The position numbers were made by a program, and so were the translations under genes. Below are positions 9,328 through 20,804 of a stretch of DNA of 64,000 nt, piece by piece. A model generated the notes under the pieces. The model was given only the letters and a program-made list of their open reading frames with translations, searched no databases and had not been told where the DNA came from. Within the stretch, counting starts at the first letter, position 1, and the number at the start of each line of letters is the position of its first letter. The stretch comes from a virus, in the IMG/VR virus record IMGVR_UViG_3300032285_000892, positions 1 to 64,000 of that record; one strand, written 5' to 3'.

Positions 9328-9557
9328 TATTCTTTATCATTATAATGTTCGTATTCTCTAAACTTTGGGTCCAAGGTGCGTCCTTCAGTATCCCAATACT
9401 TTTCACATTTATCCCCCTCACGAGGTGATTCAGCAAAGACAGATTGTCTAAACTGATTCCACGGTGCTGTGTGTCTGTAGCACCTAAACTTCACAGGACA
9501 TTGCATGTCCATACACATTGTTATATCAGCCATTGTTTTGTTGTTTAGTAATTCCAA
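9327..9557 (-). CDS. small Cys-containing hypothetical protein
   Basis: DITMCMDMQCPVKFRCYRH...CEKYW; four Cys that could bind metal. Confidence 0.6.
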   Translation of the reverse strand: MELLNNKTMADITMCMDMQCPVKFRCYRHTAPWNQFRQSVFAESPREGDKCEKYWDTEGRTLDPKFREYEHYNDKE

Positions 9558-16597: not shown

Positions 16598-17103
16598 TTA
16601 GTTTCCCATTGTGAAGTTTCGTCATTCCAATCAAGGTCTTCATTATCCTCGTCGTAATACAATAGATAATCTACATCACATAGAATTACCTTTCCATCCT
16701 CATCCAATACAGCTTGGTCATTCTCCATATATATTGCCACATACCCATGATCGTTTAATGATACATAATTCATCATATCAACGTCCATTTGGTATTCATC
16801 ACCATTGTATTCTATCCAATCAATCTGATCAGGATATGCTACAACAACTTCGGGTACATCTGGATTTGTACTAACCGCTTGTACTAAATAAGGTTTAACA
16901 GGAAAGCCATTCTCACGTATATATTTCTCAATATCACGTGGAATGGCTTCAAGTGCATGCAAATGTAAATACTCATAATCATTTACATTTGCTATAACAG
17001 CAAACAACATACCTTTCTCTAATGGTCCAGGCTCATAATGTCTGTATACTAACTTAACTGCTTTGTACATCTTTTGGTAAATTAGAAGCCTTAAATATAG
17101 CAA
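16591..17103 (-). CDS. acidic hypothetical protein
   Basis: 170 aa ORF; probable start MYKAVKL. Confidence 0.6.
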   Translation of the reverse strand: MLYLRLLIYQKMYKAVKLVYRHYEPGPLEKGMLFAVIANVNDYEYLHLHALEAIPRDIEKYIRENGFPVKPYLVQAVSTNPDVPEVVVAYPDQIDWIEYNGDEYQMDVDMMNYVSLNDHGYVAIYMENDQAVLDEDGKVILCDVDYLLYYDEDNEDLDWNDETSQWETKC

Positions 17104-17416
17104 TATCTTCTTTAGTACGCAAAACTATGGCATCTAAATCCTCATCAGTCAATTCTTCTGCATTCATAGTGATAGTATTATTTACAAATGCATCACGCTG
17201 AAATAATCTCATTTCTAATGGTTTAGGCCATGGATTACAATCCATAGAAAAATAATTATGATGTGCATTCCATGTCAAATGACTATTGTCTGAAATAACC
17301 AATGCTATTCCAGTAGGCTCACCTTGTGCATTAAATTCTAATGGAAGATTTAATGATTTGACATATTCACGTAATTCTTTAGCTATGTTCAATAGCTCAA
17401 TTGATTGTGTTCTCAT
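17054..17416 (-). CDS. hypothetical protein
   Basis: 120 aa ORF. Confidence 0.6.
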   Translation of the reverse strand: MRTQSIELLNIAKELREYVKSLNLPLEFNAQGEPTGIALVISDNSHLTWNAHHNYFSMDCNPWPKPLEMRLFQRDAFVNNTITMNAEELTDEDLDAIVLRTKEDIAIFKASNLPKDVQSS

Positions 17417-17446: not shown

Positions 17447-17710
17447 TTACTCTGTCTCAAAGAACTCTATTCTAGAAGGACTACTAGTCATCTTCTTATA
17501 GATGAGTTGTGCTTTAACAGCATTAATAGCTGTAGCATAAGCACTAACAGCAGCTTGTGCAGCTTTAATATCAGCTGTTTTATTATATGTCTTGGTTAAC
17601 TTATCACCAATCTTTTGACACATAATACGTACATCATCTACAGTTATTGTTTGTTCAGAGTTAATTACTACTAACTCTGCTACTTCTTGTTTTTTTACTT
17701 GCTTTTTCAT
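17447..17710 (-). CDS. helical hypothetical protein coupled to the Zn-ribbon gene
   Basis: 87 aa; ATGA overlap with the upstream gene. Confidence 0.65.
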   Translation of the reverse strand: MKKQVKKQEVAELVVINSEQTITVDDVRIMCQKIGDKLTKTYNKTADIKAAQAAVSAYATAINAVKAQLIYKKMTSSPSRIEFFETE

Positions 17711-18321
17711 AATTGTTTTAATTGTTTTATTTGACGTGATAATGATAATTGTTTTCTTTTAATTTCAATTAACTCTGCTGGTACATCTTTAGACTTAAGA
17801 TCATTTTGTCGAGTAATTATAGATCTAATATAATAGTCAGTTAAATTATCTCTTTGAAAATTAGTATATGCTTTAATTTTATCTGGATTTCTATTATTCT
17901 TATGAAAATTCTTTGCATATTCTATTCTTTCACGCTTAAGATTATGCTTACGTACATATTCTTTTTGACAAGGTTTACACTTAGCAACTATTTTCCCATT
18001 TTTTTTAACATCATACTCAGATACATGCTTATGTTCATTACAAGCTGTACATCTCTTATGATCATTAATGATAGGATATCTTTTGGTAGGTTTAAACCCA
18101 TTTAGTCTATTATATTTTATAGCAGCTGCTCTATCACACTCTTTGCAATTAGTTTGTGATGCAAATGAACCATCCTTATTAGATTTACTTCTTAATGAGA
18201 ATTCAGATACTGGTTTTATAATATGACATCTACCACATTCTTTGTGGTTATCAATAACTGGATAAAGTAGTTTCATAAGATTGTTATTTAATAAATGAAT
18301 AAAATAAGAGCTCAAGGACAA
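17707..18321 (-). CDS. tandem Zn-ribbon protein
   Basis: Two repeats: YPVIDNHKECGRC...EF...CKEC and YPIINDHKRCTAC...EY...CKPC. Confidence 0.7.
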   Translation of the reverse strand: MSLSSYFIHLLNNNLMKLLYPVIDNHKECGRCHIIKPVSEFSLRSKSNKDGSFASQTNCKECDRAAAIKYNRLNGFKPTKRYPIINDHKRCTACNEHKHVSEYDVKKNGKIVAKCKPCQKEYVRKHNLKRERIEYAKNFHKNNRNPDKIKAYTNFQRDNLTDYYIRSIITRQNDLKSKDVPAELIEIKRKQLSLSRQIKQLKQL

Positions 18322-18530: not shown

Positions 18531-18692
18531 CTACCTACGCGACTCCATATATAATATTGCACCAAATACTGATGCAACTAATGCACAGCCAATAGCTGTA
18601 GCATAATGACCATGTACACACATCTGTATGAACATTAAAATCATAAGGACACCTAGTGTCCCTATGAATATTTTATTAATGAGCTTATCCAT
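18531..18692 (-). CDS. small two-TM membrane protein (53 aa)
   Basis: MDKLINKIFIGTLGVLMILMFIQMCVHGHYATAIGCALVASVFGAILYMESRR. Confidence 0.55.
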   Translation of the reverse strand: MDKLINKIFIGTLGVLMILMFIQMCVHGHYATAIGCALVASVFGAILYMESRR

Positions 18693-19066
18693 TATACATC
18701 TCCTCTTTCAGAGCGTGATAACAAATAGACAAAGAAGCATGCAATGATACCAAAGAACATGAATGCTATATGTACATCCATATCAAATGGTTCTGTCATT
18801 ATTTTATACACCAATGTGTATAATACAATGATGCAGCAACAAAGAGCATAAATACAACTACGCATTAATATGCGTCTGTGATGATTAGCTGCTTTCTTAG
18901 CTAGATTATAATGAACAATATTGTCCGTATTAGCAATATGCTTATCAGATACAACAATACGTCCATTATATTGTCTTTTAGCAAATTCAGCCCAATCTTT
19001 GTCTTGATGTGAGCCCATGTGTAAACCTTTCTCATTGTACACAGTGTAATAGTTTGAATCTTTCAT
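18692..19066 (-). CDS. membrane protein with two C-terminal TM helices
   Basis: 124 aa; CIYALCCCIIVLYTLVY and IAFMFFGIIACFFVYLL. Confidence 0.65.
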   Translation of the reverse strand: MKDSNYYTVYNEKGLHMGSHQDKDWAEFAKRQYNGRIVVSDKHIANTDNIVHYNLAKKAANHHRRILMRSCIYALCCCIIVLYTLVYKIMTEPFDMDVHIAFMFFGIIACFFVYLLSRSERGDV

Positions 19067-19099
19067 TTGAATAATATATTAAAGGGTTGAAAATACAAT

Positions 19100-19520
19100 A
19101 AAATAAGAGGACTGATTACCCTCTCTGTACCGTTTAGCAGGTTGAAGCCATCTATCTCCACACCAGGACGTATCCTTACAGTGGCTGGTTGTTACCAATG
19201 AATGACTGTGATAGAACATGTTCATCATTCATTAGGCTCGAGACTTATCCCCTCTGCATTCAATTGTAATACTAACCTGATATTTTTGCACTCCACATGG
19301 CATGGACTAATTCTCATTACTGAGACTGCATATTTCCTAGTTTACAATTGCTATCCCTTGGGAGATGATTAGTTAAGCTTTTTCAATAAATGATAACATA
19401 CGTTACACATCAATTGATTGCTACACAATCCTACTAATCATGTGGTTTCACATCTTATGAGTACTAACAGAATAGCCTTTAGCATAAGAAGTCTTTATAT
19501 CCACGATAGAATGATGCATT
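19100..19520 (-). ncRNA. candidate large structured non-coding RNA of unknown family
   Basis: No ORF over ~20 codons on the minus strand; at least seven mutually nested helices of 4-9 bp; GUAA and UACG tetraloops and G-U pairs on the minus strand; terminator-like 3' hairpin. Confidence 0.6.
19106..19124 (-). terminator. 3' hairpin/terminator of the candidate ncRNA
   Basis: Minus strand AGAGG-gtaatcagt-CCTCT then TATTTTATT. Confidence 0.45.
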
Positions 19521-19527
19521 AAATAAA

Positions 19528-19549
19528 AGGGAGAAACATTATTCTCCCT
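19528..19549 (-). terminator. intrinsic terminator
   Basis: AGGGAGAA...TTCTCCCT 8-bp stem followed by TTTATTT on the minus strand. Confidence 0.6.
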
Positions 19550-19558
19550 ATGTAATAA

Positions 19559-19705
19559 CTAATTAGAAGAAACAAGCTTACATGCAAATAAACCATAAGG
19601 TTCATTATTAAGTAATGACTCAACTTTTTCTTTTGAATTTACAGTGAGTATGTGATGATAAATTATAGAACATCTACTATACTCAATAGAATATATATGA
19701 TACAT
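19559..19705 (-). CDS. small hypothetical protein (48 aa)
   Basis: Hand-translated MYHIYSIEYSRCSIIYHHILTVNSKEKVESLLNNEPYGLFACKLVSSN, followed by a terminator. Confidence 0.45.
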   Translation of the reverse strand: MYHIYSIEYSRCSIIYHHILTVNSKEKVESLLNNEPYGLFACKLVSSN

Positions 19706-19833
19706 ATCTTTATTATTTAAAAGGGTTATTAATGCTATATATTTTTATGTAGCATGTTATTTTACACTATTGATTTACACTTATTATCACCCACAAGTGG
19801 ACACGTCGCTTCTTTTACATCCACTTAATCAAT

Positions 19834-19903
19834 CAAACTAATGCTATTTTACCATAAAAGTTTATTTTCTCCTAAGAGACAATGTTAAGATAGCATTAGT
19901 TTG
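19834..19903. repeat. 14-bp perfect inverted repeat
   Basis: CAAACTAATGCTAT (19834-19847) and ATAGCATTAGTTTG (19890-19903), 42-nt spacer. Confidence 0.85.
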
Positions 19904-19954
19904 TCAATTACCCACCCAACTGAGTACTTACTCCCACCTTGTATATAAAAGAAT

Positions 19955-19972
19955 GAGAGCCCGAAGGCTCTC
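19955..19972 (-). terminator. strong intrinsic terminator with C(UUCG)G tetraloop
   Basis: Minus strand GAGAGCC-TTCG-GGCTCTC then ATTCTTTT, right after the stop of 19979-20362. Confidence 0.8.
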
Positions 19973-19978
19973 GTTCTA

Positions 19979-20362
19979 TTATGATGGAATTTCATCAGTT
20001 GATTCAACCTTAACAGTTGGCTTGAAACCACGAGATTTGATGGCTTCGATCTTGGAAGCTGTTTCTACCATTCGCTCTACCTTATCGGCACTAGCTGCGG
20101 ACTGAACCTGCCAAGAGTATTGGCCTTTCTTATCCTCACGCTCCACTAAACCAAGCTTGGCACGATACAACGTATCGTTGTTATAAAGCTTGACAAACTC
20201 GTCATCTTCATTGGCAGTAAAAGCTTTGCCTTCGAAGGAGAAGGTAAGATAGTTCTTGCCGTGGTTCTTGCTACCTTCTTTAGTGTTCTTGTAAGGACGA
20301 GCACCTGCAATTAAAGAGATGTCAAAGATTTCAACACCCTCAATGATTTTTGGATTTTCCAT
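19979..20362 (-). CDS. first gene of the leftward module, hypothetical protein
   Basis: 127 aa with its own terminator; C-ending codons (TTC, AAC, ATC) are more frequent than in neighbouring genes. Confidence 0.75.
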   Translation of the reverse strand: MENPKIIEGVEIFDISLIAGARPYKNTKEGSKNHGKNYLTFSFEGKAFTANEDDEFVKLYNNDTLYRAKLGLVEREDKKGQYSWQVQSAASADKVERMVETASKIEAIKSRGFKPTVKVESTDEIPS

Positions 20363-20804
20363 TTGTATTATAAATTAAATTGTTATTGGCTACAAGCACG
20401 GGGACCACCCGAACCCAGCCAATCATAGGTGGGGTCGCTGTTGGAAGTGGTCAACACAGTCACACCCACGATCGGTATGGGGGGTGCATAAAATTTTGGG
20501 AAAAGTTTTTTTTGGAATTTGGAAAAACATTTCTCACCTTTGGGGGGGATAAAGGGGGGGCTACATCAATCTCCGTGCACACCATGATACATATATCTTT
20601 AAACGATTCTAGAAATTTTGGAATAGGATTTGAATATAGGGGTAAGTCTCTTTCAAATTACAGTATTAAAAGGTTTGATTTTCATTTGTTATTGATTACA
20701 GTTTCATTTGTATTTACAAGATTTAATACATAATATAGCAATGGAATTATCTAGTCATCATTGGAATTCCAAACATTATACATATATTTGCCAGCAAACT
20801 AAAT
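20363..20804. promoter_or_regulatory. divergent control region between replication and structural modules
   Basis: Strand switch point; GC-rich hairpin segment, G6-G7 tracts and A/T tracts, then an AT-rich promoter region. Confidence 0.6.
20783..20790 (+). promoter_or_regulatory. Bacteroidota-type -7 promoter box (TAnnTTTG)
   Basis: TATATTTG 14 nt upstream of the first rightward ATG. Confidence 0.6.

Follow-up and report, generated by a model that had tools for sequence, protein, structure and literature searches.

The minus strand of a non-coding gap of about 420 nt in a viral genome encodes, with a probability that we would put at roughly 70%, a composite non-coding RNA. Its first module belongs to a variant subtype of the twister ribozyme class (positions 19244–19527), and it is followed by a second RNA that we call X2 (19100–19243). 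This reading is based on the comparison with around 60 related phage contigs. Sequence comparison establishes the fold and the conservation of both modules, together with their recurrent linkage, while self-cleavage, the ends of the RNA and its biological role are what we infer from them. The window is the whole stretch of DNA analysed, i.e. the first 64 kb (64,000 nucleotides) of a complete 119,148-bp virus record from IMG/VR with direct terminal repeats, and all positions refer to it unless a locus is named.

A non-coding gap in a run of small minus-strand genes

The gap had been flagged as a candidate structured RNA (19100–19520) and lies among consecutive small genes of the minus strand whose functions are unknown. 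Transcription diverges near 20362–20380, ~0.9–1.3 kb away, and the portal gene belongs to the plus-strand arm beyond that point. On the minus strand, the gap is preceded by a 127-aa ORF (19979–20362) with its own terminator (19955–19972, found in a terminator scan), a conserved non-coding block (19701–19954) and a 48-aa ORF (19559–19705), and it is followed by a 124-aa ORF (18692–19066). Immediately 3' of the 48-aa ORF there is an intrinsic-terminator-like hairpin at 19528–19549, and a second one, at 19105–19125, precedes the 124-aa ORF. In both, a G+C-rich hairpin is followed by a U-tract on the minus strand. The scan, which gave eight terminator-like sites within 18600–20500 against 0.8 expected, thus recovered the two bracketing hairpins of the original prediction. 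The U-tract of the first of them (19522–19527) doubles as the 5' strand of the twister P1 stem, and the same hairpin with its U-tract is also found directly 5' of the ribozyme in the related loci L006, L009, L018, L019, L027, L029 and L033.

The absence of a meaningful ORF was also confirmed, as the longest one in the gap has at most 56 aa and, in relatives, the gap cannot be aligned as a coding sequence. We tried a coding reading and rejected it: the 49–56-aa ORFs are not conserved, and the frames that start at the ATG in AAUGCAUCAU differ by one base from one module type to the next and soon run into stops. ARAGORN found no tRNA and no tmRNA in the window, megablast and blastn gave no match against 50,697 phage records, and relatives of the 127-aa ORF were not found in IMG/VR. 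The window gave no Rfam match at the gathering threshold, nor did 14 relatives match the twister-P1 model at that threshold, and lowering the stringency to E ≤10 in positions 18900–20100 produced only chance-level matches, in line with the earlier failure to place the element in a known family.

Other features of the neighborhood are worth recording. The non-coding stretch at 19701–19967 of the minus strand is ~79% conserved in relatives, with recurrent GTGGGTG-like words and a 13-bp inverted repeat (19890–19902/19835–19847, loop of ~42 nt) that L018 shares; the stretch could be a further RNA, or else a region with a promoter or operator. The motif AACC(C/T)TTT(T)AA is located ~12–15 nt 5' of the ATG of small minus-strand genes in the window (19079–19088 and 19712–19722) and in L008, L011, L012 and L014, and resembles a phage-specific signal of a promoter or leader. 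Besides, two genes from the gap, a 204-aa protein (17707–18321, minus strand) matches zinc-finger endonuclease VII, Lar-like and HNH PHROGs with E values from 1e-10 to 1e-12.

Conserved islands reveal a widespread module with covarying stems

Starting from the 124-aa neighbor, we retrieved three IMG/VR loci with coding DNA ~79% identical. In these loci the gap is unalignable except for three islands of 22–36 nt that are 92–100% identical: 19505–19526, 19342–19363 and 19239–19273, with 22 nt of the 5' half being 100% identical. Exact-pattern scans of IMG/VR yielded 14, and then 36, loci carrying this core. A pattern scan of genome contigs gave 72 matches, although only about a dozen had a paired P4 stem; model R1 confirmed 12 copies in 11 of the scanned loci, all of them MAG contigs, and the remaining matches are due to chance.

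The architecture was uniform across the 31 modules that we parsed, which have 13 different P4 stems. In the minus sense, it starts with a variable P1, followed by U^AA, UGCA, UCAU with 1–3 nt, and a 5-bp stem (P4) capped by the loop L4, UUCCCAAGG. The 3' part consists of a second hairpin (P5), whose tip contains 3–106 nt that are unrelated between phages, and then AA, UGCA, GAGGG and the 3' strand of P1. L014 and L018 contain tandem copies; in one of these, the first stem shows four compensatory changes and the second shows one or two.

Pairs were counted in 17 sequences and then in 46 from IMG/VR and MAG contigs. Among the 46 copies, all five pairs of P4 show changes on both sides, with 98.7% of the cells paired, and the same holds for both-side changes in all nine modelled pairs at the base of P5. 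P2 is usually formed by UGCA/UGCA, with UGUA/UACA (a CG to UA change) in three copies, and a fifth P2 pair is UA in 28 copies, CG in 12, UG in four and CA in one. P1 is weak across the subtype (60% of the cells paired). Regarding the single-stranded elements, UUCCCAAGG is found in 46/46 copies, and UAA and GAGGG in 42/46 each. The CCC of L4 is complementary to the L1-side GGG in 98.5% of the cells, and neither ever varies. None of 500 shuffles reached the observed covariation values and slid controls paired 34–52% of the cells, compared to 90% for the modelled stems, in an alignment (A6) that was fitted to our own model and favours modelled pairs, with the 18/324 pair exempt; the covariation of the positions equivalent to G13 and A40 of known twisters is free of this bias. 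The original prediction of a structured RNA on the minus strand is borne out here and by X2: the covarying folds of both modules are on that strand, and the G-U pairs fit only there. In L009 and L013, the minimum-energy fold is the ribozyme fold itself.

Degenerate copies also exist, namely L017, without a proper 5' half, and L045, with 34 bits and upstream of X2. The 121-kb IMG/VR phage contig of L017 also carries a tmRNA gene (L017:1728–2150; 78.7 bits in Rfam, tag peptide identified by ARAGORN). A weak match to the subtype model (19.5 bits, with GAAGA instead of GAGGG) is found in the window at 17144–17280, minus strand, inside an ORF (17054–17416), and is probably due to chance or a decayed relic.

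The window copy is interrupted by a unique insertion

In the window, the 5' half of the twister module spans 19505–19527, a segment type parsed in the 31 modules and whose UAA/P2 part is aligned by the Rfam twister-P1 model. It contains the 5' strand of P1 (19522–19526), the predicted scissile bond U19521^A19520 followed by A19519, the 5' strand of P2 (UGCAU, 19514–19518), the T2 partner C19513, L2 (19510–19512) and the 5' strand of P4 (CUAUC, 19505–19509). L4 (UCCCAAGG, 19356–19363) and the 3' strand of P4 (GAUAG, 19351–19355) form the conserved loop and complete the covarying stem, and are followed by the hypervariable P5 domain of 90 nt (19261–19350), in which a conserved 9-bp base (19342–19350/19261–19269) surrounds a 72-nt insert. 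The 3' half (19244–19260) comprises A19260, the 3' strand of P2 (AUGCA, 19255–19259), GAGGG (19250–19254), which holds the equivalents of the general base G45 and of the T1 guanines, and the 3' strand of P1 (GAUAAG, 19244–19249).

The islands 19505–19526 and 19342–19363 lie next to each other in relatives, and the window thus has 141 additional nt (19364–19504), exactly between the 5' strand of P4 and L4. Among more than 46 copies, only that of the window has this insertion, and neither the search of an exact 23-mer in IMG/VR nor BLAST against every fetched locus gave a match. In the predicted fold it forms two closed domains (a 9-bp stem and GUGG...CCAC; z −1.5), which hold two arms of the original prediction, the 7-bp helix 19483–19489:19453–19459 and the 9-bp helix 19433–19441:19365–19373. 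The 72-nt P5 insert is also unique to this phage (fold z −2.3) and includes the GUAA hairpin at 19312–19325. These three elements have no homologues for comparison. Altogether, ~210 of the 420 nt (the 141-nt insertion and the P5 insert) are without a homologue anywhere.

Since the unique insertion splits the core, the activity of the window copy is uncertain, and from the modelled fold we would set the odds of self-cleavage close to even. One could argue that the copy is a broken relic in which the insertion abolishes the folding of L4, so that the RNA is not cut and only X2 and the terminators work, the gap being a recombination scar in a fast-changing cassette region. The position and uniqueness of the insertion fit this explanation, as do the existence of degenerate copies elsewhere and the score of the window copy under model R1: the 5' strand of P4 is not directly before L4, as in the contiguous core of the model, and the copy obtained 45.4 bits, compared to 58–108 for 44 of the 46 other copies, with preference given to a degenerate, local 5' half located where the insertion ends. 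However, both halves of the core are intact, with core nucleotides identical to those of active-looking relatives, and the two closed domains of the insertion bring its ends together. Besides, forcing P2, P4 and P5 in the window costs just +2.0 kcal/mol over the minimum-energy fold, which already forms P2 and P5 when unconstrained, and twisters in nature withstand auxiliary arms as well as many imperfections (PMC11662667). Hence, we consider a relic a serious but doubtful explanation, and describe the window copy as an unusually expanded, possibly disabled, copy of a variant of the ribozyme class.

The phage subtype departs from known twisters in P2, T2 and the auxiliary arms

The twister class was described by Roth et al. 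2014, as reviewed in PMC6154101, and both a mutational map of the Osa-1-4 ribozyme (PMC5113685) and a survey of natural variants (PMC11662667) are available. According to our sequence comparison, the first module belongs to this class, as a variant subtype that current Rfam models miss and whose catalysis would follow from that membership. We define the subtype by a type P1 organization, a P5 arm that is always present, no P3 arm, a 5-bp P2 and a T2 interaction reduced to one C-G pair. When the Rfam twister-P1 model (RF03160) was run on a minimal copy, L021, it scored 18.8 bits against a gathering cut-off of 67.2. The alignment nevertheless covers P1, UAA, P2 and GAGGG end to end, with both inner hairpins treated as local ends.

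The order of the elements is the one found in RF03160: P1, U^AA, P2, L2, P4 with CCCAAG in L4, P5, P2', GAGGG and P1'. Osa-1-4 is cut at U6-A7, with A7 as general acid and G45 as general base, and has the tertiary contacts T1 and T2 between L4 and L1/L2 (PMC6154101, PMC5113685). Counterparts of U6, A7, A8, P2, P4, the L4 CCCAAG, G45 and A46, as well as of the guanines of T1, are found in the phage element. Invariant in it are the adenine that follows the cut, the guanine in the place of G45 and the complementarity between CCC and GGG. P1 is dispensable or weak, as it is in known twisters.

There are also clear differences. L4 has 8 nt ending in GC in known twisters, whereas that of the phage subtype has 9 nt and ends in GG; its first U and last G, neither of which varies, presumably close P4. 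In Osa-1-4, T2 consists of two G-C pairs, G13-C31 and C14-G30, and G13 is essential (PMC5113685). In the phage subtype only the equivalent of C14-G30 is possible, and is invariant, while the G13-C31 pair is absent: the nucleotide in the place of G13, after UGCA, is U or C and covaries with the equivalent of A40, before the 3' UGCA, which means that P2 has five pairs in the subtype. The single change A40C lengthens P2 in Osa-1-4 and abolishes its activity (PMC5113685), so the subtype departs from known twisters at a sensitive place. Regarding the auxiliary arms, P5 is rare (1%) and P3 common (78%) in known twisters (PMC6154101), the opposite of what we see in the phage subtype, where P5 is universal, with up to 124 nt, and P3 absent.

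These differences raise the question of whether the conserved module could be a look-alike that does not cleave, such as a protein-binding or regulatory scaffold displaying the variable P5. The score under the Rfam threshold, the altered T2, the weak P1 and a lengthened P2 that is enough to inactivate Osa-1-4 are all compatible with such a scaffold. Yet the residues known to be catalytic or to form T1 are all invariant, the elements follow the twister order P1-P2-P4-P5, and the unpaired UAA, CCCAAG and GAGGG are invariant as well, as a catalytic core predicts. For these reasons, we find a non-cleaving scaffold quite improbable and keep the assignment to the twister class.

X2, a second RNA family linked to the subtype

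X2 occupies positions 19100–19243 of the minus strand. In the window it comprises hairpin A (19197–19233) with the loop motif CUAUCACAG, the linker UAACAACCAG (19185–19194), hairpin B (19158–19184), formed by CCAC...GUGG with a UACG-capped extension, and the stretch AGAUAGAUG (19149–19157). The 3' core follows, with a small stem or possible pseudoknot (GGC-UUCAACCU-GCU and AAAC-GGU, 19126–19149) and the terminal hairpin GAGAGGG-UAAUCAG-UCCUCU with its U-tract (19105–19125), which is the one found in the terminator scan.

The homologues of X2 are 98.6% identical in L009/L010/L015 and 85% in L027/L033. We found 17 distinct versions of its 3' core, which is composed of a 3-bp stem around UUCAACCU, AAAC-GGU-ACA and a 7-bp hairpin with the loop UAAYCAG. 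Four of the seven pairs of the hairpin and two of the three pairs of the small stem change on both sides among 16 versions, and 0 of 500 shuffles gave values as high. The loop of the terminal hairpin is conserved, and its U-tract is missing in some relatives. The ACC of the small loop and GGU, both invariant, could pair as an H-type pseudoknot. The window and eight other versions also share the upstream architecture, i.e. hairpin A, the linker and the CCAC/GUGG hairpin. Hairpin A has been rebuilt on unrelated stem sequences in eight of these nine versions, with the YCACAG loop motif kept, and the extension of the CCAC/GUGG hairpin, which corresponds to the UACG hairpin of the original prediction, is variable and covarying (AGGA/UCCU becomes AGGG/CUCU in L027). 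X2 gave no match in Rfam, and its folding energy alone is ordinary (z −0.36).

Nearly all X2 loci contain a same-strand twister of this subtype, at most 700 nt upstream or directly downstream. The twister is directly upstream of X2 in the window, L027, L010, L052, L059 and L060, directly downstream in L048, L050 and L054, and within ~700 nt upstream in L046, L047, L049, L053 and L056; the two modules also occur apart and in reverse order. From these comparisons, we conclude that X2 is a genuine family of RNAs with no Rfam entry, and that it accompanies the ribozymes of the subtype.

Two known ribozymes were considered for X2 and rejected. CUGAUGA, present in X2 of L027 and L045 and suggestive of a hammerhead, forms one side of hairpin A, and reads CUAAUGA in the window. 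The 3' end resembles the substrate/loop A of the hairpin ribozyme, and here no H2 helix is possible and Rfam gave no match.

Probable exchange of segments around a conserved core

Comparison with L009 gave an indication of how the region changes. From the 3' strand of P5 through X2, the window (19103–19271) and L009:6465–6633 are 98% identical over 169 nt, against 75–78% in the flanking genes, and their P5 inserts are wholly different. The near-identity of the 3' part of the twister and X2 suggests, at the level of sequence, a recent exchange of an RNA cassette at the conserved core, or an RNA under very strong constraint. Neither the P5 insert nor the 141-nt insertion is conserved, and we take both as cargo or expansion segments; the invariant ribozyme core is probably a recombination joint for swapping such segments between phages.

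In relatives, the twister/X2 unit runs on into tRNA-like genes of 100–139 nt. They are found 3' of the twister or X2 in L006, L009/L010/L015 and L012, and those directly 3' are at L010:7255–7393, L006:5482–5581, L013:3340–3620 and L012 ~9446–9527. These genes score 29–43 bits with the Rfam tRNA model, contain long inserts in the anticodon/variable region and are missed by ARAGORN. That of L012 is a mimic of the acceptor plus T arm, with no Rfam score, and the window has none.

Two RNA modules rather than one large RNA

The six helices and both tetraloop hairpins listed in the original prediction are present on the minus strand as perfect Watson-Crick complements. Among them, comparison supports 19342–19350:19261–19269, which is the base of P5, 19225–19233:19197–19205, which is hairpin A of X2, and the UACG hairpin at 19165–19176. 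The global nesting into one ornate RNA of ~420 nt, resembling ROOL or GOLLD, did not survive. Its closing stems (19505–19510:19151–19156 and 19489–19494:19241–19246) clash with conserved pairings and are thus unsupported, because 19505–19509 is the 5' strand of P4, which pairs with 19351–19355 in all relatives, and 19244–19249 is the 3' strand of P1. Against shuffles, the folding energy of 19100–19520 is ordinary (z −0.47 for the minus strand and −0.61 for the plus strand), so that, with a z of around −0.5 for the whole region, the candidate fails by thermodynamics alone the test that had been proposed to refute it. Perfect 9-bp inverted repeats are somewhat enriched (3 versus 0.49 expected, p ~0.04) and the proposed bounds nearly agree with the ends of the RNA that we predict, from ~19520 to ~19100. 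In contrast, neither ROOL nor GOLLD matched in Rfam at the gathering threshold or at E ≤10, half of the length has no homologue, and the conserved modules are also found separately and in other orders. As a single RNA of that kind the element is very unlikely, and roles in host takeover, anti-defence decoying or scaffolding, which had been proposed for it, are not supported.

A further reading, in which the conserved islands act as DNA (recombination sites, an operator or single-strand DNA hairpins), is scarcely credible: CAATTG-centred inverted repeats do flank a segment that is wholly different between near-identical phages, but pairing is maintained by compensatory changes through a complete turnover of the sequence, the G-U pairs are specific to one strand, and the islands lie in sense orientation within a terminator-bounded unit and match the twister core. 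CRISPR-like repeats, an integron attC site, an inverton and a retron were also discarded, as the repeats are inverted, their covariation is that of an RNA, and the neighboring ORFs that we scanned include no matching enzyme gene.

Implications and comparison with known phage RNAs

According to the two-module reading, transcripts that read through the terminator at 19528–19549 would enter the ribozyme module. If folded, the ribozyme would cleave the U19521^A19520 bond, immediately past the terminator hairpin that follows the small gene upstream. The RNA downstream of the cut would then be released with a 5'-OH end, and the terminal hairpin and U-tract of X2 (19105–19125) should stop transcription after 19105. 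The predicted product has ~420 nt, with the ribozyme and its inserts in the 5' part and X2 in the 3' part. Since a twister cuts at its own 5' edge, it would stay attached to the downstream RNA.

X2 could itself be self-cleaving or bind a ligand or a protein, because it accompanies ribozymes and has many invariant unpaired nucleotides. A bolder proposal would be that X2 is a new functional RNA class of this sort, and that the twister core serves as a universal joint for swapping folded RNA cargo (P5 inserts, X2 and tRNA-like genes) and cuts the composite RNA out of early transcripts; we regard this as a long shot.

The phage subtype offers a defined setting for asking what twister ribozymes do in bacteria and phages, with a ribozyme directly after a terminator, heading X2 or tRNA-like genes, and with a P5 arm that is exchanged as a whole between near-identical phages. 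A subtype whose P2 is longer and whose T2 is reduced, and which escapes the current Rfam twister models, also bears on the tolerance of the fold to change, and X2 adds to this an RNA family absent from Rfam that has several invariant single-stranded stretches.

Finally, the element can be placed among the non-coding RNAs of phages. It resembles ROOL and GOLLD in being phage-borne, non-coding and hundreds of nucleotides long, with copies that adjoin tRNA-like genes in relatives. It differs from them in that it matches no model, only around half of its 420 nt are conserved, and it is made of two separable small modules. In gut phages, theta (HDV-like) ribozymes adjoin tRNAs, and phage T4 has the stable RNAs C and D in its tRNA cluster. 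Theta ribozymes are of another class, and the window is without a tRNA; what the phage twister subtype has in common with them and with the T4 RNAs is the presence of small ribozymes or stable RNAs in phage transcripts together with tRNAs or other non-coding RNAs.
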